The notes under the pieces were generated by a model. The model searched no databases. It was given only the letters and a program-made list of their open reading frames with translations, and was not told where the DNA came from. Below are positions 33,033-55,863 of a DNA stretch of 64,000 nucleotides, one piece after another (positions within the stretch are counted from its first letter, which is position 1; each line of letters begins with the position of its first letter). The DNA lies in contig JAGAOZ010000005.1 in assembly GCA_017623505.1 (NCBI GenBank), positions 112,710-176,709 on the forward strand, read 5' to 3'. The stretch comes from Alistipes sp. GTDB lineage: Bacteria > Bacteroidota > Bacteroidia > Bacteroidales > Rikenellaceae. Made by a program: the position numbers and the translations under genes.

Positions 33033-34112
33033 CTATTTGGCAGCTTGCCAACCTGTCAGTTTAGCAAATTCGTCGATGACGATTTTAGCCATCTTCTCCT
33101 GACCAAATTTATTAGGATGCTCCGAAGCTCCGAGGTCGGTTGTGCGATTATAAACATCCTTTGATATATCAGCCATAGCGCAATTCTCTATCGTTGTAAC
33201 CATCTGCTGCACGCACTCAACTGCGTGTGGAGAGTGAACTACACACAACACCGGCATCTGCTTGCCCCATGCCTCGCGCAGACCCTCAATCAGCTTACGA
33301 TAGCCCTCTATGTAGACCTCCTCGGAAGGGTGTGGCTGAGTGCTGAAGTCATTGGTACCCAGTGTGATAACTATCGCATCAGGGGTATAGTGACTCTTCT
33401 GAAAATCCCAAGCCGACTCAACTACCTCGTCAAACGTGCGGAAGGCACGCGAGCTCATTGTGGTCTCGAAAACCGATGTTGGCTCTGCATCGCCATAGTT
33501 ACGTACCAAACCACGTCCTGAGTGCGATATAAGGTTATAATCTGCTCCAAAGTGCGCTGCGGTCAGTGCTGCATAGGTGTAGCAGCAATTTTCCGTCTCA
33601 GGCTTGAACGGCTCGTCACCCGACTTACTCTCTGTGCCATAGCCACATGTGAGCGAATCGCCATAAAATTCGATGTGGAGCGGGAGGGCTAAATCATCTG
33701 CCGAGAGAAACTCTCCGTCGGTAGTGAACGAGTGGATTGTGACCTGTCCCTGCTCAGCCTCAGTAGCCTTCTGTATGCGGATAACATGCTCTGCATCAGC
33801 ATCTTTATTGTCAAAAAGCACGACAGTAGAGTGCTCACCCTCTGTTGTGAACTTCTCCTGTGCTACGCCATCAACCATAAGGTTAAAGAAGTTACGTTTC
33901 GTATCACTCACATCCATAGTGAGCTGTGTGCCCTTGAAACGGATGTCGATATATACACCGCTCCAATCGAATGTGATTGAGCCGTCGTCCAACGTCGCAT
34001 AACGACCTTCGATGTGCATAGGTGTCTGGGTGGCAGTAAGAGTTGTATTGCCACCTTGTTCGCAACAACTACTCATTGCAAAAAGCATTATAAGTGGTAA
34101 AAAGTGTTTCAT
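33033..34112 (-). CDS. SGNH/GDSL esterase with N-terminal beta-domain (CE2-like), lipoprotein
   Basis: FYGDSLTCGYG, SHSGRG, LGTNDF, EHP; overlaps the upstream gene by 4 nt. Confidence 0.8.
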   Translation of the reverse strand: MKHFLPLIMLFAMSSCCEQGGNTTLTATQTPMHIEGRYATLDDGSITFDWSGVYIDIRFKGTQLTMDVSDTKRNFFNLMVDGVAQEKFTTEGEHSTVVLFDNKDADAEHVIRIQKATEAEQGQVTIHSFTTDGEFLSADDLALPLHIEFYGDSLTCGYGTESKSGDEPFKPETENCCYTYAALTAAHFGADYNLISHSGRGLVRNYGDAEPTSVFETTMSSRAFRTFDEVVESAWDFQKSHYTPDAIVITLGTNDFSTQPHPSEEVYIEGYRKLIEGLREAWGKQMPVLCVVHSPHAVECVQQMVTTIENCAMADISKDVYNRTTDLGASEHPNKFGQEKMAKIVIDEFAKLTGWQAAK

Positions 34113-35950
34113 CGCAGAAATTCTCCATTTATATTAACATCTTGATTATCAAAAGGCTTAAGGCGAGCGTCGAGAACAACGGCACACTCCAGACGTGTCA
34201 GTTCTCGTTGTGGGTCGTAATTTGTGAGTCCCCACTCAGCCCACTGCTCAGCGGTGATATCGCCGCAGAATGAGATAAGGTCACGCAGAGTTACGTAATC
34301 AGAGCTATTGTTTGATGTAACGTACTTATAGTTAGGATTATATGAATCCAAACCTGCGGCTAAATCAGCTGTTGTAATCTTCTCGTCGGTATAGAACCAA
34401 GTCTGATTCTCCCAGCCTACGGTCATACCCTTACCACGCATAATTCCCGTTGCACCAATGCGTTGCACAGCGTCGAAATGTGGATGTGACGAAGGGATAT
34501 CCAAGAATGGCAACAGATAGCCGTCGCCACGCAGCACCTCGCGCTGAACATCGCGAACTGCAACATCCTTTGGCTCAATGTCCTGCATAGCAGCCAATGC
34601 AGCAATGATACCCGAAGCCTCGCCAATCTGCATAACAACAGGCTGCAGTCGTGTAGAGCCATTGACAATATTGCTTACCGAGATAGATTTCTCGGCAACA
34701 ATAAAGTTCTTTACACCCTTTGGCAACATAGTACCCATAGGCAGACCATACGAAGGAATAGAGTGGAAATAGAGGTTAGGAAGAGCCTCCCAGCCTGTAT
34801 AACGTGTATGGTGCTGATCGACAGGGTAGTCACCCACACCGACAGCGGTGCGGTAGAGCGAGTAGTTGTAAGGGTGAGTGATATGCTGAAGCTTGAAGCG
34901 CACCTCGCCGTGGGTACGACGCGACTCGCGGTGATATGGCATAAGAGGCATCATATCCTCGGTAGGGAACTCATCGTCGGCAAGATACAACGTATTGAAG
35001 CCCAACTCGTGCTGGATGAAGTAGAGAAAACGTATTGTGCGGGCCTTAGCCTCGGCAACAGCCTCGGCACGCTCCTCAGCGTTCATCTCAATCATATTGA
35101 CGTAGAAGTCATTACCCTCGATAGGCCAATTTATCATATATTTGTCATTAGGAAGCTTGCCGTAGGTAATCATCATCTGCTTAGACCATAGACGGTTAGC
35201 CTCCTTAGGTGTGACGCAGTTGTCATTGACACATGCGCAAGCAAACTCCTTAGCGTCGTAGCCCTCTGGACGCTCAATAGACATATCCTTGCCATAGTCC
35301 TTCAGCACCATAACCATTGTAAGGTCCTGAATGATGCCATTAGCCTCCTCGGGAGCAATATCCTCGCCCGTAAGCTTGCGGCTCTCCATACCCATATCGT
35401 AGCCTATACCCACCTTAGCTGCCACATCGCCCAGCTCTGTTGCATCAATAACGACTTTGGCCTTGAGCTTCCAGCTCTTTTCTCCATTGCTCAGAGTGAG
35501 TTGCCATGAGCCATTTTTGAGTTGGCGAATATCCGTAAGGGTGGTATGATAATTAACCGTTAGATTCTGCTCTGCCTCTGCCATAGCGGCGAAAATCTTG
35601 GCACCGACACTTGGCTCGAAGAGAAGGTTACTTACCCAGCCGGTCTTAAGAGCCTCTGCACCGCCATAGTGAGCCTCCAATTTATCGCGAAACTCGCCCC
35701 ACATACCACCACGCAGGCGATAGTTACCGTCGGTAGCACTTACGCCCGCAGAGGTGAGCATACCACCCAACCAAGGGCCTTGCTCGACGATAAGGGTCTT
35801 AGCTCCGAGACGTGCTGAGCGGATACCGGCAGTAGTGCCACTAGCACCGCCACCGATGATGACAACGTCATAACGTGAGGCTGCATTAACTGTAAGGGAC
35901 AACATCACCGCAGCAAAGAGTGCCACAGTGTATCGAAGAAAATGTTTCAT
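34109..35950 (-). CDS. Exported FAD-dependent oxidoreductase (PF12831-like)
   Basis: VVIIGGGASG, LGGMLTSAGV, VIDATELGD, YHRESRR, GSTRLQP..MQIGEA. Confidence 0.85.
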   Translation of the reverse strand: MKHFLRYTVALFAAVMLSLTVNAASRYDVVIIGGGASGTTAGIRSARLGAKTLIVEQGPWLGGMLTSAGVSATDGNYRLRGGMWGEFRDKLEAHYGGAEALKTGWVSNLLFEPSVGAKIFAAMAEAEQNLTVNYHTTLTDIRQLKNGSWQLTLSNGEKSWKLKAKVVIDATELGDVAAKVGIGYDMGMESRKLTGEDIAPEEANGIIQDLTMVMVLKDYGKDMSIERPEGYDAKEFACACVNDNCVTPKEANRLWSKQMMITYGKLPNDKYMINWPIEGNDFYVNMIEMNAEERAEAVAEAKARTIRFLYFIQHELGFNTLYLADDEFPTEDMMPLMPYHRESRRTHGEVRFKLQHITHPYNYSLYRTAVGVGDYPVDQHHTRYTGWEALPNLYFHSIPSYGLPMGTMLPKGVKNFIVAEKSISVSNIVNGSTRLQPVVMQIGEASGIIAALAAMQDIEPKDVAVRDVQREVLRGDGYLLPFLDIPSSHPHFDAVQRIGATGIMRGKGMTVGWENQTWFYTDEKITTADLAAGLDSYNPNYKYVTSNNSSDYVTLRDLISFCGDITAEQWAEWGLTNYDPQRELTRLECAVVLDARLKPFDNQDVNINGEFLR

Positions 35951-35963
35951 AGTGTGAAATGTG

Positions 35964-37391
35964 TTACTTTAGGTTTATTTCCTGAATATAACGTCTGCCA
36001 AAGCTATCGGTCGCTGTTACGGTTGCTTTGTTAGCACCCTCGGGGATAGCTATGCGGTAGAAGTGGTCTGCCGGAGTAGGATAGACGTATGAGTGGTCCA
36101 TACCCTCATTAGAGGCGTACATTGTCTGTGCAGCAGGGTCGTAAGTCATAAACTGCTCCATAGCCTTTGCCTTGCCACCATCGAACGAAGCCTCGACAAC
36201 CCACTTGGTATCACTCGCCCACACGTTGGCAACGAGTGCTCCCTCAAACTGTGGGTATTCAGCACCTGCGTAGAGTGTCATCTGATAGTCGGCAGGGTAG
36301 TCTGTTGATTTGTAGTACCAATTTACCTCGCCACCATCAATCTCAAATACGCCATAGCCACGAGGTGTGCCGTCGGTACACAGTGGACCCTGCCACCAAG
36401 CACCACTCAATGCAGGAATGACGTGCTCGTAGAGCTTATCGGAGATAATCTGATTGAAGGTGGTGTGAGTGTGTCCCGAAAGGATGTGAGCGTTGTATGG
36501 CTCCAGCATCTTATAGAGTGCCTTGGCGTTGGTTGTAACGCCGGCTATATTGTCATAACTGAATGTTTTACGGTCTTTCTCGTCGCAAGTGGTAGGGATG
36601 TGGAGCACAACGAAGACTGTCTTACCCTCAGGAACATAGCTCAAATCCTTCTCCAACCAAGCGTACTGCTTCTCGTCGATATAACCGATATAGAACCAAT
36701 CACGACCGATATAGAAATTGTCGTTCAAGACTACGTAGTGCACATCGCCAACGTTGAATGAGTAGTAGGTTGGTCCGAAAGTCTCCTCCCACAGACGTGT
36801 AGAGGTCTCGTGTGTGCGACTGTAAAGTGTCATATCATGGTTGCCCGGTGTGCTGTAAAAGTCAAGACCCGAAGCGGCCATTGTAGCGTTATATTGTGGG
36901 TAGAATGTGTGGTCATAAGAGATGACATCACCACAGCAGATGCCGTGGAATGGGATATCGTAGCCCTCGACAGTTTCGCGGATATTGCGTGCGCCGTCAG
37001 CGAGTGCAGGGAACTCCTTCTTATGCCAAATCTGAGGGTCGGCAATGACGATAAAACCGTGGTGGGTGTCATCCTGCTCCTTCTTCTGAAGTGTGAAGTT
37101 GTAGGTGTCGTTACCCTCGGTGATCTTCTGCCAGAACTGAGGAACGCTATTCTTGCTCTCGACGTTATAACCCGCAGGAACAGTGATATATACAAGTGGA
37201 TTGTCTGAAGCAGATGGCAGGCAGTAGCGACCCTTGGTATCGGTGGTAGTGAAGTGCTCACCATCGGTTACAACAACCTCAGCAATGCCCTTACCATCAC
37301 ATGTTACCTTACCCTTCAAAACTCTTTTCTCGGCAGCCCACACATTTACGGTAATCACCAAAGCTACCATCAGCAGCAGAAATCTCTTCAT
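35964..37391 (-). CDS. Exported calcineurin-like metallophosphoesterase
   Basis: ADPQ, CGDV, GNHD, HIP, GHTH motifs; N-terminal VVVTDG.HFTTTD..G domain. Confidence 0.88.
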   Translation of the reverse strand: MKRFLLLMVALVITVNVWAAEKRVLKGKVTCDGKGIAEVVVTDGEHFTTTDTKGRYCLPSASDNPLVYITVPAGYNVESKNSVPQFWQKITEGNDTYNFTLQKKEQDDTHHGFIVIADPQIWHKKEFPALADGARNIRETVEGYDIPFHGICCGDVISYDHTFYPQYNATMAASGLDFYSTPGNHDMTLYSRTHETSTRLWEETFGPTYYSFNVGDVHYVVLNDNFYIGRDWFYIGYIDEKQYAWLEKDLSYVPEGKTVFVVLHIPTTCDEKDRKTFSYDNIAGVTTNAKALYKMLEPYNAHILSGHTHTTFNQIISDKLYEHVIPALSGAWWQGPLCTDGTPRGYGVFEIDGGEVNWYYKSTDYPADYQMTLYAGAEYPQFEGALVANVWASDTKWVVEASFDGGKAKAMEQFMTYDPAAQTMYASNEGMDHSYVYPTPADHFYRIAIPEGANKATVTATDSFGRRYIQEINLK

Positions 37392-37406: not shown

Positions 37407-38585
37407 TTATTTTGACATCTTTTCTTTTAGCTCCTTAAGCAGGCACTCGCACTTATACAAGCCACGTGGTACGTGGAAGCAACCCTTCCACTTACCGCCC
37501 TTCAATGGCAGCAATACCTCACCACGACGGTTCAGGTAGCCATACCACTCAGGGTGCTCCTCATCGCGGAAGTGTGACCATGTGTAATCGTGCAACTTCT
37601 CAAACCAAGCCTTGCAACGCTCATCGCCTGTGAGCAGATAGCCCTCCAACATAGCGATAGTAGACTCAATATGTACCCACCAGAGCTTCTGGTCCCACTC
37701 CAACTGCTGAGTAGGGTAGCCCTTACGGTCCATAAAGTAGTAAAGACCGCCAAACTCCTTATCCCAGCCGAAATCCAGAGTGTTAAGGCCTATCTCAACA
37801 GCCTTCTGTGCCAAAGACTCATCACCACGACGACGTGCCAAGTCCATCAAGAACCAAGTGGTCTCCAAAGTGTGACCAGGGTTGATAAGGCGGCCATCGA
37901 ACGTATCGCTCAGAGTGCCGTCGGCGTTGAGGTGCTCGACAACCAAACCGAGCTCCGGACGGTAGAACTTATCCATAACATCCGAGAGAACCAAGTCGAT
38001 AGACTTCTCAACCTGGTCAGGCTCAATCAAGTGCTCAATCTCAAGCAGGAGGTTACACATAATCATAGATGGTGACAAAGCACGCAAATCGCGTGAGCCC
38101 GGACAAGCCTTGCTCCACTTACCCTTAGGGTTGTCCCAGCGCTCCAAGATGTGAGCAAAGGTGCGGCGGGTAACCTCAGCGTAGCGCTCGTCGCCTGTAG
38201 CCTTATGCAACTGAGCAAAAGCCATAGCAGCAAAGGTATAAGAGAAGATGTTGTATGGCTCGACGAGTGGTTTGCCATCACGTGTGATAGCAAAATACCA
38301 ATTGTAATCGCCGTCGTGACCATATTTGAGCATAAACTCTGCTCCCTGGCGTGCACACTCTAACCACTCCTCACGTATGCCCTCCTTGTTGCAGAGCATA
38401 GAGAAGAACCATACCTGGCGGCCCTGAAGCCACATAAACTTATCGGTGTCAAAAACCGAACCATCGCGGTTCAAACAGGTGAAGTAACCACCGAACTCCT
38501 TATCCTGAGAGTGCTCCAACCAGAAAGGAATGACTCTGTCGTAGAGCTCGTCGTGGTATTGTTTAATTAAAGCATCAATTTGCAT
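37407..38585 (-). CDS. N-acylglucosamine 2-epimerase (AGE family, Bacteroides NanE-like)
   Basis: WLQGRQ, NPGH..E..WF, QKLWWVH.E, KWKGCFHVPR. Confidence 0.93.
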   Translation of the reverse strand: MQIDALIKQYHDELYDRVIPFWLEHSQDKEFGGYFTCLNRDGSVFDTDKFMWLQGRQVWFFSMLCNKEGIREEWLECARQGAEFMLKYGHDGDYNWYFAITRDGKPLVEPYNIFSYTFAAMAFAQLHKATGDERYAEVTRRTFAHILERWDNPKGKWSKACPGSRDLRALSPSMIMCNLLLEIEHLIEPDQVEKSIDLVLSDVMDKFYRPELGLVVEHLNADGTLSDTFDGRLINPGHTLETTWFLMDLARRRGDESLAQKAVEIGLNTLDFGWDKEFGGLYYFMDRKGYPTQQLEWDQKLWWVHIESTIAMLEGYLLTGDERCKAWFEKLHDYTWSHFRDEEHPEWYGYLNRRGEVLLPLKGGKWKGCFHVPRGLYKCECLLKELKEKMSK

Positions 38586-38674: not shown

Positions 38675-39613
38675 TTAAAGTTTCTCGCCTAAAAAATATT
38701 CGCGGTAGCGGTTAAATAGGTGGTGTGCCGAGGTGTAGCTCGACTGTGGCGAGAGGAAGTGTGAGAACTCGAAGGTGATAGCCTTATCGTAGCCAGCGCG
38801 TGCTGCAGCCTCAAGCTTCATACGCAACTTCTCAAACTTGATAGGCAGGAACTTGATAGGCATATCTCTGTCGAAGGTCTCGGCGTTGGTCCAGCACTCC
38901 AAACCATAACGGTCGGCAAGGCGCTTATTAACCTCAAAGAAGGCATCCAACTCATCATAGTCAATATGTCCATCTTGGAAGGCAACGGCATCGACAGCAC
39001 CGTGAATACCTGCGAAAATCTCGTCCCACTCGCGCTCGTGGTCAGCAACCGACACGGCATCCTCCTTGCTCAGCGACGACGAGGCAGCCATAACAGCCTT
39101 CTTGCCGTCAATCCATGGAGAGATAAGCGTTGGCAGACCTCCAGAAACGGCTTTACAATGCTCTCCCTGCTCGCGGAATGCCTCGATGACGCCCTTAGTG
39201 CGGCGGCTAATCTCACCGCTGAGATACCAACCACCAAACGAAGGGTGGTGCTGGCCATAGTTCTCCCATACCTCGTCGATGACAAAGCGATTGTACTCAG
39301 TCTCCTTAGACATATCGCCCGTATCCCAATAGTGACCTGAGTCGTAAAGGCCGAAGTAGAACTTCATGCCGTACTTGTCGGCCAAGCGCAGATACATATC
39401 CAATAAATCGTGCGAAGGAGCGTAGCAACCCTTGCCGATAAGGTATTTCGAAGGATAGGTAATGAACTTACGGTATCCCGAACGAATCATAATAACGGTA
39501 TCAATGCCGATAGAACGCATATTGGCGAAGTCGGCATCCCACTCCTTCTCACCCCAATTCTGGTGTGGGATATCGTGGCTAATCTCATCGAGAAATGTTC
39601 CTGTAATCTTCAT
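38675..39613 (-). CDS. DUF4434-family putative glycoside hydrolase (start MKITG at 39613)
   Basis: TFLDEISHDIPHQNWG, GWYLSGE, AFQDG, WTNAETFDRD, KAITFEF TIM-barrel pattern. Confidence 0.7.
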   Translation of the reverse strand: MKITGTFLDEISHDIPHQNWGEKEWDADFANMRSIGIDTVIMIRSGYRKFITYPSKYLIGKGCYAPSHDLLDMYLRLADKYGMKFYFGLYDSGHYWDTGDMSKETEYNRFVIDEVWENYGQHHPSFGGWYLSGEISRRTKGVIEAFREQGEHCKAVSGGLPTLISPWIDGKKAVMAASSSLSKEDAVSVADHEREWDEIFAGIHGAVDAVAFQDGHIDYDELDAFFEVNKRLADRYGLECWTNAETFDRDMPIKFLPIKFEKLRMKLEAAARAGYDKAITFEFSHFLSPQSSYTSAHHLFNRYREYFLGEKL

Positions 39614-39630
39614 ATCGTGTGGTGGAAACT

Positions 39631-41036: not shown

Positions 41037-41705
41037 CTATTTGCGTAGATATTTCATTTTCTTCAAGTAATCAACCCAAGCTTCATAGGCCGCAGGGTAG
41101 AGGTGAATACCGTCTTTGGTGTACTCCTCCTTAATCTCGCCCTTCTCGTTATGCAATACAGGGCGGATATCTACCCACGTAACACCCATCTGGTGGCACA
41201 TCTGCTCCAGGCGAGTGTTGAGCTCGGTGACTTTGTCTTGCTTATTTTTGATGTAGGCATAAGCCAAGACGTCGTTATTAGGGGTGATAGGACTCTGAAT
41301 GTAAATCTCACACTCAGGAGCCTTCTCTTGAATCATCTCGACCATAGCAACGAAATTGGCGTAAACATCGTCAATAGGGTAGTTGGCTGAGATATCATTA
41401 ATACCAGCAAAGATGAAAATCTTGCGTGGAGAGGCCTCCAAATAGAGTGGTAGGCGGTGGAGCATACCGTATGTGTTATCTCCACCAATACCACGATTTA
41501 CAAAATCCTTCTCCTTAGTAAGACTCTCCCACCAAGCTTGCTCCACGATGCTATCGCCAATCCAAATCATAGCGTTCTTAGGTATAGGCATCTTGGCATA
41601 AGCGGCCATACGGCAGTCGTAGTAGTCGTTATGGAACTTAGGCGTCTGAGCCATAGATGGGATAGCTGTCAAAAGAGCTATTGCTATGAACAACAGTTTC
41701 TTCAT
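41037..41705 (-). CDS. Exported SGNH/GDSL acetylesterase
   Basis: IGDSI, NRGIGGD, AGIND, DGIH blocks I-V. Confidence 0.88.
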   Translation of the reverse strand: MKKLLFIAIALLTAIPSMAQTPKFHNDYYDCRMAAYAKMPIPKNAMIWIGDSIVEQAWWESLTKEKDFVNRGIGGDNTYGMLHRLPLYLEASPRKIFIFAGINDISANYPIDDVYANFVAMVEMIQEKAPECEIYIQSPITPNNDVLAYAYIKNKQDKVTELNTRLEQMCHQMGVTWVDIRPVLHNEKGEIKEEYTKDGIHLYPAAYEAWVDYLKKMKYLRK

Positions 41706-47190: not shown

Positions 47191-50100
47191 TTATAGAGTA
47201 ATATTCAAACCTACTGACATAACTCGCTGCTGTGGGTAGTAACCGTTGTTTACACTTGGTAACTCAGGGTCGATATTGTACTTACCGACGTGGCTCAAAG
47301 TGAAGAGGTTAGAACCCTCAACATATACTCGTACACGCTGGATACCTACCTTCTTGGTGATGTTGGTAGGAAGAGTGTAACCGAGCTGCAAAGTCTTCAA
47401 ACGGAGGTAGTCTCCCGGACGATACCAACGAGTTGAAGAGTATGCGTTGTTAGAGCTACTTGCCAACGACAAACGTGGGAAGTATGCGCCAGTGTTCTCT
47501 GGTGTCCATGAGTTCTCAACAAGGTAGAATGGTGAGTTACCATCGTGGTAGAATGGCTTAGTCATAGAGGTATTATCCATGATACCGCCTGAGTAAACAC
47601 CTGTCAAAGCGATAGTGCTACCTGTTGCACCCTGCAACAAGAAGTTGAAGTCGATACCCTTCCACTCGCAGTTGAATGACAAACCGGCAGTGAACTTAGG
47701 ATATACAGATGTACCTACGTAACCACGGTCCTGCTCGTAAGAAATCTTACCATCACCGTTACGGTCAAGATACTTGATATCACCTACGCGGATTGGCTTA
47801 CCAACCATGGTTGGAGAGTTCTGAATCTCCTCCTCGCTCTGGAACAAGCCCTGGTCGATGAAACCGATAACAGAACCTACCTCCTTACCAGTAAGCTTCT
47901 GGTAGTCAGGAGCGTTGTCGGCGTCACCAGAGTAGAGCAACCAACGACGCTTAGCGTATGAGCCCATGAACTTAATGCCATAGCTGAACTCGCCTGCGCG
48001 GTTGTTGTGTGAGATAGAGAAGTCGAAACCGCGGATATCCTGCTTATTCTTGTTCTCCCATGCTGGATAGTAACCACCAACTGATGGAGGATAAGCACCT
48101 GATGCGCTTGCCAACATATCGTACTTGTAAGTGTAGAAGACGTCGGCCTCAACACCGAGCAAACCGCCCCAGAATGTTGCATCAACACCGATGTTGTAGT
48201 TGAGGTTCTTCTCCCATGTGATATTTGGGTTAGCTACGCCTGAGGTGTAGATACTTGACTGACCAAGACCACCGATAACTACTGAGTTACCGCTTGAAAT
48301 GGTCATTGTGTTCAAATATTGATATGCGCTAACGGCAGAAGTACCTGTAAGACCGATACCTCCACGGAGCTTCAAGTTATCAACCCACTTTGCGTTAAAC
48401 CACTTCTCTTCAGAGATACGCCATCCTGCAGATGCTGCTGGGAAGAAGCCCCAACGTGAGCCGTTCATACCAGAGAAGAGGTATGTACCATCGTAACGAC
48501 CTGAAAGCTCAACGTATACGCGGTTGTCGTAGTCGTAGTTCAAACGAACAACGAAACCAACCTGACGGCTGCGGCCACTTGTACCACCGATAGAACGCTT
48601 GTCGCTTGATGCGTCACCGAAGTTAAGCTCAGGAAGGTTCTCGAAGAGGATATTGTACATACGACCGTAGTGGTTGTTGCTCTTATAGTCACGAGTCTCC
48701 AACAGTGCCAAAGCAGCTACACGGTGCTTACCGAAGGTGTTGTCATAAGACAAGCTTGTCTGAGTAACGCCGTAGTAGTTGTAGTAAGAGGCCTCCTGCA
48801 ATGAGTTCTCTGAACCAAGGCCTGAATAAGTCTGGCTAACGGTGTAGTTCATCTTATTGATGTAACCGTTCTCGTCATAAGAGAAGTTAGCCAAAGCCAA
48901 CTCATAAGGAGTAGAGAAGAGCTTAGTGTGAGTGAAGGTCATATCGTAAGATGCGAAGAACTTAGCAGACAAACCCTTAACCCAAGGAATATCCCAACGA
49001 AGAGAGATGTTAGGCTCGATATATGTAGCCAAACGCTTGTTAGAACCAGACTCCTCGTATGCAGCAACTGGGTTTACAGTGGCTGATGCGGTAGGAGTAG
49101 CTGTGTGGTACTCAACACCGTCGATTGTAACCTTCTCAGGTACGTAAGGGTGAACACGCATAGCCTGCTGTGCAACGTTGTTCCAATCGGCGTCGCTTGC
49201 ACTATATGTAGGCTGGTCGTGGTCCTGAATACGGCCTGAAAGACCTACCTCCAAAGTGAGGTTCTTAGCAATCTTCGCTGTGAGGTTCGCACGCAATGTA
49301 TAACGACGGAAGTTGAAGTTATCAACGTTACCCTTCTGGTCGAACATACCGATAGATGCGAAGTAGTTCATATTGTCGTTACCACCGGTAGCTGAGATAG
49401 TGTGTGACATGTTGTGACCGAGGTCGAACACCTTGTCATACCAATTGGTGTTACCCCAACCATCCTCATTGTTAATCATCTTCTGAACGATGTCGGCAGT
49501 AAAGATAGGCTTCTGGCCATCCAACTCCAAAGCCTTGTTATACCAATAAGCATAACCAGGACCATCGAGCAGGGTCATAGGGTTGGCGTTCTGGCTCACA
49601 CCATAAGAACCCTTGTAAGAGATTGTAGACTCACCCTTCTGACCACGCTTAGTAGTAACGATGATAACGGTGTTACCATCCAAACCATAAACGGCAGCAG
49701 CAGAAGCATCCTTCAATACTGAGATTGACTCGATATCCTCAGGGTTAATCTGGTTGATGTCACGAGGCACACCATCAACAATGTAAAGTACAGACTGACC
49801 ACGTACCATGAGTGATGAACCATCGGCACCAGGCTGACCTGACTGCTGAACAGCGGTTACACCGGCAACACGACCTGCCAACATATTGGTTACGTCGCCC
49901 ATAGGAGCTTTCTCCAGATCCTTACCAGAAATCTGGGAGATAGCGGCTGTTACAGACTGCTTCTTCTGTACACCGTAACCTACGACAACAACCTCGTCCA
50001 GACGCTCAGCCTCATTCTTCAACTCAACCATGAGATTTTTCATGCTTGCAGTGACTGGAACATAAACTGTTTCCATACCGAGGAATGAAATCTCTAGACT

Positions 50101-50343
50101 ACTGCCAACCTCGGCAGTAAGAGAGAACTTACCGTTGATGTCGGTAGAAGCACCTGTTGTAGTACCTTCAACCATAACGGTAGCACCAATAATAGGTTCG
50201 CCCGCTTCATCAACAACTGTTCCCTTCACAACGTTCTGTGCCCAAGCTGCACTTGGACTCAAAACCATAAAGAGGGCAAATATTGTTGAAGCAACAACGC
50301 TCAACAAAGCACGTCCCCCTTTAGAATGGGATAAATGTTTCAT
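47191..50343 (-). CDS. SusC family TonB-dependent transporter
   Basis: VKGTVVD.GEPIIGATV, EVVVVGYG, ISVLKDASAAAVYG, NPNITWEK, C-terminal YPQQRVMSVGLNITL. Confidence 0.97.
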   Translation of the reverse strand: MKHLSHSKGGRALLSVVASTIFALFMVLSPSAAWAQNVVKGTVVDEAGEPIIGATVMVEGTTTGASTDINGKFSLTAEVGSSLEISFLGMETVYVPVTASMKNLMVELKNEAERLDEVVVVGYGVQKKQSVTAAISQISGKDLEKAPMGDVTNMLAGRVAGVTAVQQSGQPGADGSSLMVRGQSVLYIVDGVPRDINQINPEDIESISVLKDASAAAVYGLDGNTVIIVTTKRGQKGESTISYKGSYGVSQNANPMTLLDGPGYAYWYNKALELDGQKPIFTADIVQKMINNEDGWGNTNWYDKVFDLGHNMSHTISATGGNDNMNYFASIGMFDQKGNVDNFNFRRYTLRANLTAKIAKNLTLEVGLSGRIQDHDQPTYSASDADWNNVAQQAMRVHPYVPEKVTIDGVEYHTATPTASATVNPVAAYEESGSNKRLATYIEPNISLRWDIPWVKGLSAKFFASYDMTFTHTKLFSTPYELALANFSYDENGYINKMNYTVSQTYSGLGSENSLQEASYYNYYGVTQTSLSYDNTFGKHRVAALALLETRDYKSNNHYGRMYNILFENLPELNFGDASSDKRSIGGTSGRSRQVGFVVRLNYDYDNRVYVELSGRYDGTYLFSGMNGSRWGFFPAASAGWRISEEKWFNAKWVDNLKLRGGIGLTGTSAVSAYQYLNTMTISSGNSVVIGGLGQSSIYTSGVANPNITWEKNLNYNIGVDATFWGGLLGVEADVFYTYKYDMLASASGAYPPSVGGYYPAWENKNKQDIRGFDFSISHNNRAGEFSYGIKFMGSYAKRRWLLYSGDADNAPDYQKLTGKEVGSVIGFIDQGLFQSEEEIQNSPTMVGKPIRVGDIKYLDRNGDGKISYEQDRGYVGTSVYPKFTAGLSFNCEWKGIDFNFLLQGATGSTIALTGVYSGGIMDNTSMTKPFYHDGNSPFYLVENSWTPENTGAYFPRLSLASSSNNAYSSTRWYRPGDYLRLKTLQLGYTLPTNITKKVGIQRVRVYVEGSNLFTLSHVGKYNIDPELPSVNNGYYPQQRVMSVGLNITL

Positions 50344-50370: not shown

Positions 50371-51702
50371 TTATTCCACTTTCATATTCTGCTCCAACAC
50401 ATCCCACCAATCGCGGTTTACGATGTGTACAAGGTCGAAAATCATCAATCCGCCCTCGCAGCTCTGCATAACCTGCTTAACGGCACGACCAAACTGCTCC
50501 TTGTCCTGCTCGTACTGGTCTACGTAGAGTGAGCCGGCAACAGGAACTACGCCACAAGTGATAGCCTGAGCGAGCTCAGCACCACCCTCAACAGAGTAGC
50601 AATAGGTCAAATCGTTAGGGTCCATACCAGACTCGGTACGCTGACCAACAACGCGACCCTGAGCAGCATCGACCTCATCCTTAGTAACCAAAGTGTAGTA
50701 AAGACCGGTCATATAGATATCCAACAAGTCGGCATAGCCTGTCTTGTAGTAGTTCTCCGAAGCCCAATCAGGATAACGCTCCGATGGGTCGTACTTAGTG
50801 CTTGCCCAGTTTACACCCAACTGATAGTAAGTAGGATACCAAGCACCTGTGTAGTCGCCGATAAGAATATCAGGATTAACAGCGTGGATAGCTGCATGAG
50901 CCTCCTCAACGAATGACTTGATGACGGTAGCACGCCACTCAATCCACTCCTTGAAGTACTTAGCAGGACGCCACTGCTTGCCCTCCCAGGTCATAATATC
51001 CTCAGGGAAGTTCTCTACCTTGTGGCCGCTCCACTGCTCAAACTGCTGACGAGAGAGGTCAGAGAAGTCAGAGGTGATGTTGTCATAACGCAAACGGTCG
51101 AAGATTATACCGTCAGCCTCAGGATAACGCTCAGCGAACTCAACCAAGATAGCCTTCTGGTACTCGCGTACCTCAGGGTTAGATGGGTTGAGCATACCGT
51201 TGTAGTTGTTCTTCATCTCGCTGATTGGCACTAACTTGCCATCAGGCATATAGACGATAGACTGCCACTCTGGGTGCTCGTTGTAGATGATACCACGCTT
51301 GAAAATCATGTGACCACCAGCAAAGATATTAAGCGAGCCGTGAACACGCAGACCTGCCTTGTGACCATAGTCGATGAAGTGCTGCATCATATCGTACTCG
51401 CGTGGGCGAACAGTGCCCTCAAACTCAGCCATATATGGTGCAATCTTACTGTCGTAGAGAGTCTCACCCATAATAGACTTAACATCGACAACGATGTCGG
51501 TGATACCGATAGACTTCATCTTATCTACATAGTAGGCGATAGAGTCTTGAGAACTCATGCGCTCGAAGTTAGCCTCGCAGTCTACCCACATATAGACAGG
51601 TTTACCAGACTTGGTTGCCTTAACAGCTGCGGCATTATTGCAACAACTGATAGCAAAAGTGGCAATGATAACAAGCGACAAAAGATTAAAAAGTTTCTTC
51701 AT
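50371..51702 (-). CDS. GHL10-like (PF02638) TIM-barrel glycoside hydrolase lipoprotein
   Basis: WVDCEANF, LNPSNPEVREY, FDRLRYD, GAWYPTYYQLGVNWAS; paralogous to the C-terminus of 41728-43728. Confidence 0.8.
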   Translation of the reverse strand: MKKLFNLLSLVIIATFAISCCNNAAAVKATKSGKPVYMWVDCEANFERMSSQDSIAYYVDKMKSIGITDIVVDVKSIMGETLYDSKIAPYMAEFEGTVRPREYDMMQHFIDYGHKAGLRVHGSLNIFAGGHMIFKRGIIYNEHPEWQSIVYMPDGKLVPISEMKNNYNGMLNPSNPEVREYQKAILVEFAERYPEADGIIFDRLRYDNITSDFSDLSRQQFEQWSGHKVENFPEDIMTWEGKQWRPAKYFKEWIEWRATVIKSFVEEAHAAIHAVNPDILIGDYTGAWYPTYYQLGVNWASTKYDPSERYPDWASENYYKTGYADLLDIYMTGLYYTLVTKDEVDAAQGRVVGQRTESGMDPNDLTYCYSVEGGAELAQAITCGVVPVAGSLYVDQYEQDKEQFGRAVKQVMQSCEGGLMIFDLVHIVNRDWWDVLEQNMKVE

Positions 51703-51740: not shown

Positions 51741-53024
51741 TTACTCAACTTCAGAAATTACGATAGCAGTAGGAACTGAACGCTGGCTGCCGTCGCTTGG
51801 GTTGTTGTAAACCTTGCCGTCATAGCCTACGATAGCAGATGAACCACCACCGTCGAGGTTGATAGCGTAGTCCATATTGTACTCAACGAAAATCTCAGCC
51901 ATCTCGCTAAGGGTAAGACCATTAGAGCCATTCTTGCCACGTCCGTCGCATACCAAAAGCATCATCTTGCCATCCTTAGTACCGCCGATAGCTGTACGTG
52001 GCTGACGAGTGTTACCGCTGGTACCGCCTGTGTGCATAATCTCACGATAGTAGTACTGCATGGCTACGTTCTCACCGTTGTAAACCAACATAGGACCGCC
52101 ACCGATAGCCTGCTCAGGCTCCCAAAGCTCTGCGCCAGGGGTGCTTGTGGTAGGAGCACTTGTCATAAAGGTATGAGTAATCTCGTCGTTGTCGAGTGGT
52201 GATGGGAATGAGTATGGCTTGCCACCAATGCAGTAAACCCAAGTAGCCTCGAATGAACCGTCAGCCATCTGACCTAAAGCTGCGCGAACAGGGTAAGCGG
52301 TAATCTGGTTACCAGAAGCGTCGTCAGGATATGCAAGCTGAGTAGCGATAGACTTAACCTCACCATCGGTGATGCAGAGGCTGAGTGATGCGCCATCCCA
52401 GAAGTAACCACCGTTAGATACTACGTAAGGAGTACCCATGCCCAAACCCTTGAAGTACTCAAATGCTGCAGTAGGAGTCTTTGCAGGGTCGAGGTGAGTA
52501 GGACGGAAACGAAGATTACTGTTAGACTTCAAGTCGGCAACAGCAATATAACCCTTAGCTACGCCACCATCAGAGAACTGACGCTCGAAAGGCTCGAAAG
52601 AGAGTCGCTTTGGATAGTTTGACTCAGGAGCGTCACTTGTGGTGATGACAGTAACAGGAGAGCAAACTGTGCTCTTGAACTGGTCACGTGCTGCTGCAAC
52701 GACAGTGTAAGCGGTTGCAGGGGTAAGGTCGGTGATGGTGATGTTGATACCTTCTTCAGCATCGATAACTGTACCCTGTGCAAAAACCTCGTCGGCACTC
52801 ATAGAGAGAGTCTCACCTTCGGTGTAGTAGTATGCACACTCATCAGCATAGAGTGATTTGATGAGTACGGTGACAGATGTTGTACTCTTCTCAACAGGAG
52901 TGATGACCGCTTGTGGTGTAGTCTCAGGATCTGGGAATACATAAGTCGGATTGACCTCCTCTTTGCAACTGAAATTCAGGCCGATACAGGCCATGAGAAC
53001 TGCTAAAATCGTTAGATTCTTCAT
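51741..53024 (-). CDS. Phosphodiester glycosidase (NAGPA/PF09992-like) surface lipoprotein with an FN3-like stalk
   Basis: NGGYF, AIGGGPMLV, QPRTAIG, DGRG, NLDGGGSS; lipobox NFSC followed by KEE. Confidence 0.88.
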   Translation of the reverse strand: MKNLTILAVLMACIGLNFSCKEEVNPTYVFPDPETTPQAVITPVEKSTTSVTVLIKSLYADECAYYYTEGETLSMSADEVFAQGTVIDAEEGINITITDLTPATAYTVVAAARDQFKSTVCSPVTVITTSDAPESNYPKRLSFEPFERQFSDGGVAKGYIAVADLKSNSNLRFRPTHLDPAKTPTAAFEYFKGLGMGTPYVVSNGGYFWDGASLSLCITDGEVKSIATQLAYPDDASGNQITAYPVRAALGQMADGSFEATWVYCIGGKPYSFPSPLDNDEITHTFMTSAPTTSTPGAELWEPEQAIGGGPMLVYNGENVAMQYYYREIMHTGGTSGNTRQPRTAIGGTKDGKMMLLVCDGRGKNGSNGLTLSEMAEIFVEYNMDYAINLDGGGSSAIVGYDGKVYNNPSDGSQRSVPTAIVISEVE

Positions 53025-53245: not shown

Positions 53246-53277
53246 AAAAAAAAGAGCTACCACGAGGGCAACTCTTT
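53246..53277 (-). terminator. Intrinsic terminator after the ROK-MFS pair
   Basis: AAAGAGTTGCCC/GGTAGCTCTTT stem (G-U pairs on minus strand) followed by a U-run. Confidence 0.6.
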
Positions 53278-53302: not shown

Positions 53303-54622
53303 TTATACCTCCTTAACCTGCTCCTTAGTGTCGGGATGGGTAAATGGAAGACGCCATGTAAGGATAAATGCAGGGATTGCACTAACCAGAGCCCAAATGA
53401 AGAACTGTTGGTAACCTATATGGTCGCTGATATAACCCGAAATCATACCCGGAAGCATAAAGCCTAAGTTGGCAAGAGCCGAGCCAAAGGCGTAGTGTGC
53501 CATTTGGTGCTTACCCGGTGCAACTTGTTGCATAATAAATAGTGTAAGTCCCACAAAACCAAAGCCATAGCTGAAATATTCAAAGACAATACCACTGCAT
53601 ATAAGGAACGGATTTTGAGGTTGGAAGATTGCTAACAATGCATACACAACGAATGGTATGTTGAATATACAGCAAAGTGGGAAAATTGCTTTTTTAAGGC
53701 CAATCTTAGAGATGAAAAGTCCGCCCAATGCTGAGCCTATAATAAAGGCTATTGTTCCGAATGTGCCGACATAAATTCCGATATCTGTCTTAGTCAAACC
53801 AAGACCTTCGTTTGCGACGTCAGCGCTGAGGAAAAGAGGTACAATCTTAATAACGAAACCTTCAGCAAAGCGGTAGCATACAATCCATGCAATATAGATC
53901 CATATAAATTTCTTCTTGAAGAAAAGTAATATGACATTCCACGTTTCGAGCAACGTCTCTGAGGCAGAAGAGTGGCTGCTGTGGCTTGCACCTCCTGAAG
54001 GAAGTCTGCGCCAGTGGTATAAACCCAAGCAAATCAGCAATATACCGCTGATAAGCATGATGACACCCCACGAATTAATAGCCGCGCATAAGTCTGTATA
54101 GTTGTTCTCCTTGTAATAGTTTATCAGAAAATCTGCTAACCATACTAGCACTCCGGTTGCTGTAACTTTTGCGGCGTTGTAGCACATGCCTTGTATTCCC
54201 ACAAATTGAGCCTGTTGCGTCTTGTTTAGCTCGGTGATATAAACGCCATCAAGAGCAATATCGTGTGTAGCTCCACTAAATGCTAATACGGTCATAATAG
54301 CCACTACGTATGGGAAGAAGTCGGGGAGTGGCAGAGCCATCGCAATGAGGGCTAATGACACGCCCGAAACAATCTGAGTGGTAACGACATAGAACTTCTT
54401 GGTGCGATACATCTCCATCAGTGGGCTCCAGAATGGTTTGAGCGACCAGGGGAGGATGAGTAACGATGTCCAGAAGGCGATTTGAGCATCGGAAATGCCG
54501 AAATCCTTAAACATAAGTGGGGCTACCAGATTGATGAGAATCAGTGGTAATCCCATAGCAAAGTACGCAGAGGGTACCCACCAGAGCGGCGAACGCTTGG
54601 TCTGTTTTAGTGCTTGTTCCAT
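53303..54622 (-). CDS. AmpG-like MFS transporter
   Basis: WVPSAYFAMGLP, LPWSLKPFWSP, ATHDIALDG; 12 hydrophobic segments. Confidence 0.85.
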   Translation of the reverse strand: MEQALKQTKRSPLWWVPSAYFAMGLPLILINLVAPLMFKDFGISDAQIAFWTSLLILPWSLKPFWSPLMEMYRTKKFYVVTTQIVSGVSLALIAMALPLPDFFPYVVAIMTVLAFSGATHDIALDGVYITELNKTQQAQFVGIQGMCYNAAKVTATGVLVWLADFLINYYKENNYTDLCAAINSWGVIMLISGILLICLGLYHWRRLPSGGASHSSHSSASETLLETWNVILLFFKKKFIWIYIAWIVCYRFAEGFVIKIVPLFLSADVANEGLGLTKTDIGIYVGTFGTIAFIIGSALGGLFISKIGLKKAIFPLCCIFNIPFVVYALLAIFQPQNPFLICSGIVFEYFSYGFGFVGLTLFIMQQVAPGKHQMAHYAFGSALANLGFMLPGMISGYISDHIGYQQFFIWALVSAIPAFILTWRLPFTHPDTKEQVKEV

Positions 54623-54657
54623 TGTGTTGTAAATTTATATCTTTTTAATCTCTTTTG

Positions 54658-55863
54658 CTATAAGCCTAATGTGCGGTTACGAGTGATGGCACAGATGCCT
54701 ATAAGACCTGCCGACTCGCCTAACTTTGAGACCTTGATGGCTGTATCTTTCGATACAAAGTTAAGGGCGTATTTGTTGATGGCACTCTTGATAGGTGGAA
54801 GTAGATAATCAGTTGCAGAACAGAGAGTTCCACCCAAAACAATAACCTCGGGATTGAACATATTAATCAATCCTGCTATGGCACGACCAAGCGACGAACC
54901 TATCTGTTCCATAACCTCTATAGCGAGCATATCTTCGCTGTCGACAGCGTCTAAAATGTCGCGTACAGAGATTATCTCTCCTCGCTCATAAATTGGCGAA
55001 AGCATCGAAATCTTGCCCTGCTTCAGATTGTCCATAAATAGTCGGTGTGCAGCCGAGCCTGAGACCTCGGTCTCGAGGCAGCCACGCTTGCCGCAGCTAC
55101 AAATTATCTCGTTGTCGAAGAACGGGAAGTGTCCATACTCGCCCGAGAAGCCCGACTTGCCGTAGTGGAGCTCGCCACCGAGAATCATACCGATACCAAA
55201 TCCCCAACTCAGATTCAAGAAAATCATATTCTGCTCGGAGTTACCTACGCCATATACATACTCGCCGTAAGCCATTGCACGTGAGTCATTTTCGATGTAT
55301 ACGCGGCAGCCTAAACGCTCCTCCAAGACAGCTGTTACGGGTTTCTCGTCGAAGAAGAAGTAGGAGTATGAATAGCCCGTCTCGGGGTTGATACGTCCGG
55401 GGATGTTGATACCCGTAGCGAAGAGTTTCTCGCGGCGGATACGTGCTGTGGCGATGAATGAGTTAATCAGCTCGCACAGACGGTCAAACGAGGTGCGGGT
55501 GTTCTCGATAGTGAAGGGATATTGGCGTTGAACGACCATATCGCCACGGAAGTTTATGATGCCGATGACTACCACGTCGCGTTTGATGTCGACGCCCATA
55601 AAGTAGCCTGCAGAGGGGTTTAAGCCATATATGCTTGGGCGACGACCACCTGTGGCAACCTGCTTGCCCAAATCGCAAACGAAGTCCTCCTCAATCAGAG
55701 TGCTGACAATCTTTGTAAGTGTCGGAACACTCAGACCGAGCTCGCGGCTAAGGTCGGCAATACTCTCGCCGCCATTCTTCATATATCGACGCAGAATCTC
55801 GCGTTTGAGCTGAGCAGACTTGTTGCCGCTCTCTAATGCGTCGAGGAAATTTGTCTTGACCAT
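54658..55863 (-). CDS. ROK family (NagC/XylR-like) transcriptional regulator
   Basis: N-terminal wHTH (ADLSRELGLSVPTL), IENDSRA, GEYGH, CSCGKRGCLE zinc motif; TAACTTTG promoter at 55913-55920. Confidence 0.93.
   Translation of the reverse strand: MVKTNFLDALESGNKSAQLKREILRRYMKNGGESIADLSRELGLSVPTLTKIVSTLIEEDFVCDLGKQVATGGRRPSIYGLNPSAGYFMGVDIKRDVVVIGIINFRGDMVVQRQYPFTIENTRTSFDRLCELINSFIATARIRREKLFATGINIPGRINPETGYSYSYFFFDEKPVTAVLEERLGCRVYIENDSRAMAYGEYVYGVGNSEQNMIFLNLSWGFGIGMILGGELHYGKSGFSGEYGHFPFFDNEIICSCGKRGCLETEVSGSAAHRLFMDNLKQGKISMLSPIYERGEIISVRDILDAVDSEDMLAIEVMEQIGSSLGRAIAGLINMFNPEVIVLGGTLCSATDYLLPPIKSAINKYALNFVSKDTAIKVSKLGESAGLIGICAITRNRTLGL

Follow-up and report, generated by a model that had tools for sequence, protein, structure and literature searches.

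The closest described relative of the locus analyzed here is PUL8/PUL9 of Bacteroides thetaiotaomicron VPI-5482 (BT0433-BT0454), a polysaccharide utilization locus (PUL) region that has been listed since 2008 as gut-induced with an unknown substrate, and in which nearly all the enzymes come from uncharacterized families. Its genes BT0433-BT0438 have been assigned to the predicted regulon of a ROK-family regulator named 'NanR' (Ravcheev et al. 2013, PMC3878776), with BT0434 being an oxidoreductase of ~627 residues (PMC12596196 supplement). Among the remaining genes, BT0446 encodes a DUF5009 protein, BT0447 and BT0449 each a 'family 10 glycosylhydrolase', BT0448 a calcineurin-like C-terminal domain protein, BT0450 a DUF5018 protein, BT0451/52 and BT0439/40 two SusD/C pairs, and BT0453 a second N-acyl-D-glucosamine 2-epimerase (AGE) (PMC10434189, PMC12596196 supplement). 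Together, the PUL8/PUL9 genes form a 'NanR iModulon' that is co-activated in vivo and with mucosal glycans, its substrate being given as 'unknown type' (PMC12596196 supplement). Here, we describe a 23-kb locus of the same kind at positions 33033-55863 of a 64,000-nucleotide stretch of DNA from Alistipes sp. (contig JAGAOZ010000005.1; the whole stretch is hereafter called the window). The new observation is that its DUF4434 protein, a barrel resembling those of clan GH-A glycosidases, is encoded beside AGE, and that across homologous loci the compartment of DUF4434 tracks the type of transporter encoded with it.

The window locus is a new member of this orphan family. It comprises 15 genes, all on the minus strand, identified from the open reading frame list and from Pfam and NCBIfam profile searches (Table 1), and, with adjacent SusC and SusD genes that are co-oriented with glycan-active enzymes and a regulator, it is a PUL of the Sus paradigm. 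Shared with PUL8/PUL9, and co-localized here, are a ROK regulator, a PF12831-type oxidoreductase, DUF4434, AGE, DUF5009, two GHL10 proteins with a DUF4985 segment, a calcineurin-like phosphoesterase, DUF5018, and SusC/D. For BT0435, this comparison was made by sequence and fold; for the other B. thetaiotaomicron genes, it was made by the family names used in the papers. B. thetaiotaomicron has, in addition, a second SusC/D pair and a second AGE, a GH89, a GH3, and a DUF4855 protein that bears a glycerophosphodiesterase annotation; its transporters are sugar porters of the major facilitator superfamily (MFS), and its DUF4434 protein carries an N-terminal extension of ~56 residues like the Tat-signal forms discussed below. 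The window, by contrast, has one SusC/D pair, an AmpG-like MFS, a DUF4434 protein without a signal peptide, and a NAGPA lipoprotein that heads the operon. Another described system of comparable layout is nanR-nanLET of Bacteroides fragilis, where ROK, an AGE-type epimerase, and an MFS permease are likewise adjacent (PMC13114119), but the window locus lacks NanL, has DUF4434 and the flavoprotein in the place of the lyase, and has an MFS of the AmpG-like type. A canonical sialic-acid (nan) locus was considered and rejected: in the genome, which is 93.7% complete, profile searches detected no BNR_2 sialidase and no sialate lyase, the sole DHDPS-family gene scoring 126 bits against the NanA cut-off of 382.

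An earlier interpretation made from the letters alone (the sequence-only reading) had described a PUL directed at peptidoglycan-teichoic acid or phosphodiester-linked amino-sugar polymers. All the gene families that it named were recovered by the Pfam and NCBIfam searches at the positions that it gave, and three genes that it had not listed, those for DUF5018, DUF4434, and the PF12831 flavoprotein, complete the inventory. The locus indeed contains none of the GH33, NanA, GH20, and GH2 genes whose absence it remarked on; two GH20 genes are located elsewhere in the genome. As for its interpretation, the theme of amino sugars, phosphodiesters, and N-acetylmannosamine (ManNAc) stands, and the DigH-like degradation of peptidoglycan is not supported, as detailed below.

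Conservation and modularity of the locus family

The gene set of the locus is shared by Alistipes, Tidjanibacter, Muribaculaceae, Marinilabiliales (Maribellus, Draconibacterium, Prolixibacteraceae), Dysgonomonadaceae, Paludibacter, and Sphingobacterium. In all, 62 loci centered on NAGPA homologues were retrieved, and the open reading frames of the 38 more distant ones were clustered, with flanks of 10 kb that limit the counts. GHL10-type and DUF5018-type proteins are each encoded in 35 of these 38 distant loci, the phosphoesterase in 29, DUF5009 in 26, SusC in 21, SusD in 19, AGE in 12, DUF4434 in 11, and ROK in 10. Recurrent extra neighbors are GH20 (22/38) and a NagB-PIG-L fusion (6/38), along with sugar-porter or SSF transporters, SASA and GxDLY esterases, and GFO/IDH/MocA oxidoreductases. 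Twelve clusters of neighbors present in at least two of the 38 loci have no match in the window, and the 10 of these that were annotated, including all those present in at least three loci, contain no amidase, peptidase, lysozyme, MurQ, or GlpQ/glycerophosphodiesterase.

In one even draw of 400 Bacteroidales genomes, among which related genomes are not independent, DUF4434 is encoded in 14 and DUF4985 in 11 (both in nine, DUF4434 alone in five, DUF4985 alone in two, neither in 384). Where the two co-occur, the modules that contain them lie mostly on one contig, within ~15 kb of each other, and the nine genomes span at least seven families. Given this co-occurrence and the recurrence of the same families around NAGPA homologues in the 62 loci, the arrangement is not a matter of chance: the locus family is real and modular. 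One module (A) consists of ROK, the flavoprotein, DUF4434, a transporter, and AGE, and the other (B) of NAGPA, two GHL10 proteins, SusC/D, DUF5018, the phosphoesterase, and DUF5009. Three genomes of the same bacterial family as the window but of another genus (G433, G552, and G654) have no detectable DUF4434, DUF4985, or AmpG-like MFS, which argues that gain or loss concerns the locus as a whole, even between closely related bacteria.

DUF4434, the epimerase, and the inner-membrane transporter

The DUF4434 protein of the window is the ortholog of BT0435, the structure of which is available as PDB 4h41 (E 1e-169 and 9e-183; ~72-80% identity; Z 39.9 for the model). Its start is at 39616, 14 nucleotides after the DUF5009 gene, and not at an upstream ATG that overlaps DUF5009. 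In the model (pLDDT 81.9), two invariant glutamates, E135 after beta4 and E246 at the end of beta7, occupy the positions expected of a clan GH-A retaining glycosidase, so that the protein, judged by Glu position only, belongs with this clan, its neighbors being GH5 and GH164. The next-best folds are GH5 beta-mannanases, GH5 exo-beta-mannosidases, and a GH164 beta-mannosidase (Z 18-19.6). Searches by family name and PDB code found no literature characterization of DUF4434, of DUF4985, or of PF12831.

In most loci, DUF4434 adjoins AGE, and it retains more than 60% identity across families. The AGE assignment is secure in the window, where the protein scores 653 bits against the equivalog NF052547 (cut-off 600) and matches the Anabaena AGE structure 2gz6 at E 3e-151; the GlcNAc (N-acetylglucosamine)/ManNAc epimerase that had been read from the sequence is thus upheld, in a genome without a detected sialidase or sialate lyase. 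With AGE present and these two enzymes undetected, ManNAc must have a source other than sialic acid.

The compartment of DUF4434 switches with the transporter. Forms with a Tat (twin-arginine) signal have a XylE-like sugar-porter MFS gene adjacent in 13 loci from 12 genomes (L027 and L095 being from the same genome), and forms without a signal have an adjacent SSF transporter or an AmpG-like MFS in the window. No mixed case was seen; in two loci of the Tat form and three of the signal-less form, there was no transporter gene close enough to be assigned. On the simplest reading, a periplasmic DUF4434 would go with the import of its monosaccharide products, and a cytoplasmic one with the import of its substrate, a small saccharide. 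Because the compartment changes together with the type of transporter, DUF4434 would be the last glycosidic step before AGE, and this position suggests that its substrate is the final small saccharide, from which it may set ManNAc free. In a beta-ManNAc glycoside, the 2-acetamido group is cis to the leaving group, so that substrate assistance is impossible, and cleavage therefore requires an enzyme nucleophile such as DUF4434 appears to provide.

By its profile scores, the MFS permease of the window does not qualify as an AmpG. It scores 77-87 bits against AmpG equivalog models with cut-offs of 656-756 and also falls short of the broader family cut-off (Table 1). This transporter was not found in three genomes of the same bacterial family that lack the locus, and in two further genomes of Bacteroidales (G242 and G400) its gene is at a great distance from the locus; judged by this distribution, it was recruited in particular lineages and does not belong to the system everywhere. 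A link to the catabolism of N-acetylmuramic acid (MurNAc) was also considered and rejected: the SSF transporter of the Marinilabiliales loci is unrelated to the one encoded beside MurQ in the window genome (26% identity over 136 residues), and the MurQ and NamZ genes of this genome are unlinked to the locus.

The GHL10-fold enzymes

Both GHL10 proteins of the locus belong to PF02638 (72 and 58 bits, threshold 27.9), and they are the only GHL10 genes in the genome. The AlphaFold2 model of the shorter one, GHL10a (pLDDT 89.6), is closest to Cwp19 of C. difficile (Z 32.5), followed by the GH153 domain of PgaB (28.1), GH42-type barrels (~26), and GH156 (23.5), and shows that the DUF4985 region is part of the barrel, not a separate domain. 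A profile of 26 locus enzymes matches Cwp19 at 1e-16 and Escherichia coli DigH (YddW) with an hhalign probability of 99% (E 5e-18). The Pfam family and a homologous barrel are, accordingly, common to DigH, Cwp19, and the locus enzymes, but the latter carry DUF4985 as a conserved C-terminal segment of the barrel, and their active sites differ. In Cwp19, the F-D-D-Y-F-Y block after beta4 holds Asp195, Asp196, and Tyr197, of which Asp196 is the proposed catalytic residue (PMC5765458). DigH has the same block, whereas all 26 locus enzymes have an invariant D202-R-x-R205-Y, and the HAWFNPYR block, which contributes Trp127 and Arg132 in Cwp19, becomes HASxNTFVGGHN. As these active-site blocks differ, the chemistry and substrate of DigH are not transferable, and the locus enzymes do not qualify as DigH/Cwp19-type peptidoglycan strand hydrolases or lytic transglycosylases. 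The DigH-like depolymerization of peptidoglycan, a central element of the sequence-only reading, is not supported on these grounds, along with the lack of peptidoglycan-type enzymes among the annotated recurrent neighbors.

The reported structural link between Cwp19 and GH156 (PMC6811678) prompted us to examine membership in this family of inverting sialidases. Just one segment aligns (E 0.17 over 30 residues), placing R205 on Arg202 of EnvSia156, which binds the sialate carboxylate (PMC6811678) and is the sole residue with an aligned equivalent out of the Arg129/Arg202/Asn346 carboxylate triad and the catalytic Asp14/His134 pair, and Asp41 of GHL10a lies at the end of beta1, as does Asp14, the catalytic base of GH156. 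The D-x-x-R-[FY] pattern is also present in the uncharacterized DUF4015 protein 4s1a. With such an E-value, a Z-score below those of Cwp19 and PgaB, and no C-terminal sandwich, membership in GH156 is rejected, and a weak mechanistic analogy is retained. PgaB GH153 and GH156 belong to the same (beta/alpha)8 superfamily as the locus enzymes, and GH156 shares with them the Asp-x-x-Arg segment after beta4, but there is no significant full-length similarity (E 0.17-0.5) and the accessory domains differ. Judging from the conserved motifs, the GHL10 proteins with DUF4985 are a distinct GHL10 subfamily that probably recognizes an anionic group, phosphate or carboxylate.

Predicted phosphodiester-handling and acyl-modifying enzymes

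The NAGPA domain (PF09992) has its NGGYF, RTAIG, and NLDGGGS motifs intact, with DGGGS at residues 391-395, and RTAIG and NLDGGGS align to the vertebrate NAGPA structure 6pku. The DGGGS loop is strictly invariant and, in human NAGPA, holds the GlcNAc-1-P moiety (PMC13474241). A C-terminal core with NGGYF, RTAIG, and DGGGS is common to the window protein, vertebrate NAGPA (the mannose-6-phosphate uncovering enzyme), and bacterial DUF2233 proteins; compared with the vertebrate enzyme, however, identity is low, with ~90 residues aligned, and the window protein differs in being a lipoprotein and in carrying ~130 additional residues as an N-terminal domain. The metallophosphoesterase has GD154, GNHD183-186, and GHTH306-309, although the first motif may read D-P-Q. 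Surface fusions of a calcineurin-like phosphoesterase with a NAGPA domain occur naturally (Bacillus subtilis ShfP preprint, 10.1101/2024.03.27.587046), and, according to earlier work as cited in that preprint, the calcineurin-like phosphoesterase PhoD degrades the phosphodiesters of teichoic acid. The proposal of a dedicated amino-sugar PUL with phosphodiester-handling enzymes is supported by these motifs, and the phosphodiester part of the earlier reasoning appears coherent at the level of sequence; the two O-deacylases and the HGSNAT-like membrane protein that it invoked are present as well.

The NAGPA gene also lies in a stretch of low similarity between the window and L001 (metagenome-assembled genome Rikenellaceae SIG172). 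Nucleotide identity is 97-99% over 54.3-58.3 kb of the window (ROK and the DUF4988 gene) and 90-97% from SusC through GHL10b, the longer GHL10 protein, but falls to 64-85% in window 51300-54300, which takes in NAGPA, the intergenic region, and two-thirds of the MFS gene at its 3' end. This mosaic looks like recombinational allelic replacement centered on the putatively surface-exposed NAGPA lipoprotein.

The substrate of the locus

In what we consider the best explanation, with a probability of roughly 0.4, the locus is a ROK-controlled PUL for a glycan that is rich in N-acetylhexosamines (HexNAc), O-acylated, and partly N-deacetylated, and contains sugar-1-phosphate diesters, the likeliest candidates being envelope polymers of other microbes that contain ManNAc and are anchored by a phosphodiester. 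The most likely sources are wall-teichoic-acid linkage units, secondary cell-wall polymers, and HexNAc-phosphate capsules, the peptidoglycan strand itself being a less likely target. Such polymers explain more genes of the locus than the other candidates do: NAGPA and the phosphatase would act on the GlcNAc-1-P anchor, the esterases on O-acyl groups, DUF5009 on de-N-acetylated residues, GH20 on beta-HexNAc, and DUF4434 with AGE on beta-ManNAc.

From the observed gene content, operons, conservation, motifs, folds, and DUF4434-transporter link, we infer the following substrates and order of steps. At the cell surface, GHL10b and the NAGPA lipoprotein would open the polymer, NAGPA cutting the glycosidic bond of GlcNAc-alpha-1-O-P, and DUF5018, SusD, and SusC would capture the fragments and take them up. 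Once in the periplasm, these would lose their O-acyl groups to the SGNH and CE2-like esterases, the metallophosphoesterase would take off the exposed phosphate, and DUF5009 would re-acetylate free amino groups with cytoplasmic acetyl-CoA as the donor, while the second GHL10-fold enzyme would trim the fragments, a task that may fall to GH20 in many homologous loci and for which GH20 is here encoded outside the locus. A small HexNAc saccharide would then be imported by the AmpG-like MFS and cleaved by the signal-less DUF4434, acting as a retaining glycosidase of the clan GH-A type, with ManNAc as one product; AGE would convert ManNAc to GlcNAc for the GlcNAc pathway, and the ROK repressor would sense a product of the route.

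Several considerations weigh against this explanation. No enzyme of the locus family has a demonstrated substrate, the FAD-dependent oxidoreductase is left without an explained role, and the window locus contains no glycerophosphodiesterase. The lean of DUF4434 toward beta-mannan enzymes is slight, other clan GH-A families reaching Z 17.4-18, and NAGPA was not found within 10 kb of most DUF4434-centered loci. The family is patchy, present in ~3% of Bacteroidales and in 5 of 300 genomes phylum-wide, which is odd for a system directed at a ubiquitous wall polymer. The B. thetaiotaomicron counterpart adjoins GH89 and a cluster of sialoglycan/N-glycan exoglycosidases, which fits a host glycan. Finally, induction in mice, which were reportedly mono-associated, is hard to square with microbial polymers: induction of PUL8/PUL9 is listed for adult and suckling mice as well as for porcine mucosal glycans (PMC12596196 supplement, PMC6989115). 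The same operons, however, respond also to carbon limitation through BT4338 (PMC6989115). The ROK repressor probably senses a monosaccharide product and would be released by the GlcNAc-type products of any mucin; for both reasons, induction does not identify the polymer. The sequence-only reading had named, as evidence against itself, induction by host or plant glycans alone together with a lack of enzyme activity on peptidoglycan, teichoic acid, or HexNAc-phosphodiesters, and the induction listed for PUL8/PUL9, while bearing on the first part, is not decisive for the same reasons.

The main alternative, which we consider less likely, is a host mucosal glycan, for example, one of mucus or shed cells that is terminated by alpha-GlcNAc or alpha-glucosamine or is phosphorylated. 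In that case, NAGPA, DUF5009, and the phosphatase would correspond, on the bacterial side, to NAGPA, HGSNAT, and acid phosphatase of the lysosome/Golgi. Besides the induction in B. thetaiotaomicron, such a substrate would explain why GH89 (BT0438) is in the same regulon and would suit the presence of the locus family in gut Alistipes, Muribaculaceae, and Tidjanibacter. It sits poorly, however, with the near-complete loci found in records titled Maribellus, Draconibacterium, and Sphingobacterium olei, as well as in Prolixibacteraceae and Paludibacter. Maribellus, Draconibacterium, and Sphingobacterium comprise free-living bacteria, which excludes a substrate of exclusively mammalian origin. Furthermore, no GH89 or sialidase was detected in the window genome, and AGE adjoins DUF4434 in most loci even though, to our knowledge, host glycans contain no ManNAc. 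The peptidoglycan strand as the target is still less probable. Here, DigH-like GHL10 enzymes would cut peptide-free strands, teichoic acid would be released from MurNAc by NAGPA and the phosphatase, and the MFS would import GlcNAc-MurNAc-type fragments. Family and fold do place the GHL10 proteins close to Cwp19 and DigH, the MFS is the only match to AmpG-family models in the genome, and the bacterium can use MurNAc through its MurQ fusion and NamZ. Yet, the replacement of both active-site blocks, the sub-threshold score of the MFS, the lack of amidase, peptidase, lysozyme, and MurQ among the annotated recurrent neighbors, the unlinked MurQ and NamZ genes, and the unrelated SSF transporter of Marinilabiliales all point away from peptidoglycan, in the catabolism of which AGE and DUF4434 have no role.

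Two further polymers can be considered from the perspective of the GHL10 fold. A partly de-N-acetylated, O-acylated, dPNAG-like poly-GlcNAc of biofilms, cleaved by GHL10 in the manner of PgaB GH153 and by GH20 in that of dispersin, would make sense of the second-closest fold being the C-terminal domain of PgaB, of the weak sequence matches to PgaB and GHL13, of the frequent GH20 neighbor, and of re-acetylation by DUF5009 together with the esterases. It has no explanation for NAGPA, the phosphatase, AGE, and DUF4434, which are the partners conserved most tightly, and the sequence similarity to PgaB is marginal (profile E 0.2-0.5), so that we give this polymer little chance. Least probable of all appears to be a glycan of sialic acid-like or other acidic keto sugars, subject to inverting cleavage as in GH156 and to sialate O-acetylesterases, with ROK and AGE as remnants of a nan system. 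The alignment of R205 with Arg202 of EnvSia156, the position of Asp41, the shared barrel fold, the SASA esterases of some loci, and ROK as a counterpart of NanR are all compatible with it. The aligned segment is short and its E-value poor, however, and its motif recurs in 4s1a, taken to be of unrelated function; DUF4985 lies within the barrel instead of forming a C-terminal sandwich of its own; the genome has no detected sialate lyase; and no NanU-named chain is among the SusD matches.

We therefore favor ManNAc-containing microbial envelope polymers. A more specific version of this explanation, which should be taken as tentative and is rather more likely to fail than to hold, is that DUF4434 founds a family of glycoside hydrolases with beta-N-acetylmannosaminidase activity, that the locus family is the first described route for the uptake of wall glycopolymers of other bacteria that contain ManNAc and have a phosphodiester anchor (teichoic-acid linkage units or secondary cell-wall polymers), and that the GHL10 proteins with DUF4985 constitute a new activity class of the GHL10 fold, recognizing an anionic sugar (phosphate or carboxylate) via D-R-x-R-Y.

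Gene organization and other features of the locus

The locus is organized in two transcription units, ROK-MFS and the 13-gene operon from NAGPA to the CE2-like esterase, as delimited by the terminator-like hairpins at their ends, so that the ends of the locus are those given in the sequence-only reading. Spacing between genes is short throughout, the gap 3' of the MFS gene excepted. Within the long operon, a GC-rich 10-pair hairpin (43767-43792) lies in the 74-nucleotide gap between DUF5018 and GHL10b and may be an internal attenuator or an element of RNA processing or stability. In the region 5' of the NAGPA operon, phylogenetic footprinting detected AT-rich blocks that are conserved, none of them usable as an operator; genome scans with these blocks matched unrelated genes (primase, ribosomal protein L19, and others).

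Table 1. Features of the window locus and its borders: feature, coordinates in the window, strand, and basis of the assignment
DUF4988-BACON-DUF5018-like lipoprotein, divergent, beside ROK	56209..58356	+	Pfam
ROK regulator with N-terminal winged helix-turn-helix (NagC/Mlc-like), BT0433 (NanR) counterpart	54658..55863	-	Pfam ROK 197 bits, HTH_24
AmpG-family-like MFS permease, co-transcribed with ROK	53303..54622	-	TIGR00901 148 bits, cut-off 350
Intrinsic-terminator-like hairpin, end of ROK-MFS unit	53251..53277	-	11-pair stem followed by T run; kept in orthologous loci
Lipoprotein (C-KEE after lipobox) with C-terminal NAGPA/DUF2233 domain	51741..53024	-	Pfam NAGPA 112 bits, threshold 25
Shorter GHL10+DUF4985 lipoprotein (GHL10a), TIM barrel, probably periplasmic	50371..51702	-	Pfam; D202-R-x-R205-Y motif
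SusC-like TonB-dependent transporter	47191..50343	-	CarbopepD_reg_2 and Plug domains
SusD-like lipoprotein	45537..47180	-	SusD_RagB 184 bits
DUF5018 lipoprotein of surface glycan-binding type, SusE/F position	43803..45524	-	DUF5018 277 bits; lipobox followed by QEPED
Longer GHL10+DUF4985 protein (GHL10b) with N-terminal fn3-like extension and C-SDEK surface-export-like signal	41728..43728	-	Pfam; weak PgaB and GHL13 matches; invariant D/R motif in alignment
Secreted SGNH/GDSL esterase	41037..41705	-	Lipase_GDSL_2 92 bits; signal peptide
DUF5009 polytopic membrane protein (putatively of the HGSNAT/NagX-like transmembrane acetyltransferase family)	39631..41031	-	DUF5009 204 bits, threshold 25
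DUF4434 TIM-barrel glycosidase-like protein, BT0435 ortholog, no signal peptide	38675..39616	-	Match to PDB 4h41
AGE, N-acyl-D-glucosamine 2-epimerase, cytoplasmic	37407..38585	-	Equivalog NF052547 653 bits, cut-off 600
Secreted, putative calcineurin-like metallophosphoesterase (MetallophosN, catalytic core, MetallophosC)	35964..37391	-	Pfam; motifs
Secreted PF12831 FAD-dependent oxidoreductase	34109..35950	-	FAD_oxidored 309 bits
CE2-like lipoprotein esterase (CE2_N beta-sandwich and SGNH)	33033..34112	-	Pfam; AxeC2-like 143 bits, under cut-off
Intrinsic-terminator-like hairpin, end of NAGPA-to-CE2 unit	32985..33011	-	11-pair stem followed by T run

The N-termini separate the secreted proteins into two groups. 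NAGPA, GHL10b, and DUF5018 have acidic residues after the lipobox cysteine, as in surface-type lipoproteins, making GHL10b the probable depolymerase of the outer surface, whereas GHL10a, the SGNH esterase, the phosphoesterase, and the flavoprotein are predicted to be periplasmic. For SusD, the true start is probably an ATG three codons downstream of the listed one; its best PDB match is the uncharacterized 3qnk, and among its structure matches there is no chain named NanU and no characterized binder is prominent. The ROK protein reaches 200 bits with the NCBIfam NagC model, under the equivalog cut-off. The flavoprotein is the positional counterpart of BT0434, and its gene adjoins DUF4434 in most Bacteroidales loci; matches to solved structures are confined to the Rossmann motif. 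Outside the two units, the divergently encoded lipoprotein at 56209-58356 is kept beside ROK in most of 24 Alistipes loci, at 51-100% identity and more weakly in four, and probably serves the locus as an additional binding protein at the cell surface.

The host genome (2.0 Mb) has its closest relatives among Rikenellaceae/Alistipes genomes assembled from animal guts. It contains ~9 SusD genes and, genome-wide, no GH89. An SSF transporter gene lies beside a gene for a 562-residue fusion of a NagK-like domain to MurQ, the MurNAc-6-phosphate etherase (G000:C4:3159-6298), with the NagK-like domain scoring 49 bits against a model cut-off of 370, and NamZ is encoded separately (G000:C8:45040-46248). 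This operon of an SSF transporter and a kinase/MurQ fusion resembles the murTKQ system of Tannerella, and, together with NamZ, it indicates that the bacterium can use MurNAc by genes unlinked to the locus.

Four RNA libraries, two of them labeled bovine gut, contain short contigs that are 92-99% like SusC/D, GHL10a, NAGPA, DUF5018, AGE, MFS, and ROK, which suggests, at low depth and without a silent-region control, that the locus or its sister loci are transcribed in ruminant guts; these contigs give no information on the inducer. In each of two bovine-gut libraries, one contig connects position 44168 with 49362 and leaves out 5193 bases, 26 unrelated letters standing in their place. The most likely origin of such a junction is an assembly chimera or a related strain; a rearranged sister locus could also give rise to it.

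Implications

The retention of this locus by a small-genome bacterium with few SusD genes suggests that it is nutritionally important in animal guts. Its GHL10-fold enzymes should not be taken to act like DigH, and the ManNAc branch of amino-sugar metabolism appears here in a form that is independent of sialic acid. If the more specific version of our explanation holds, the substrate of B. thetaiotaomicron PUL8/PUL9 would be settled. If, furthermore, the polymers in question are wall glycopolymers of Gram-positive bacteria, the locus family would provide a direct molecular route for the recycling of bacterial necromass, in guts as well as in sediments, and would add several new families to CAZy.

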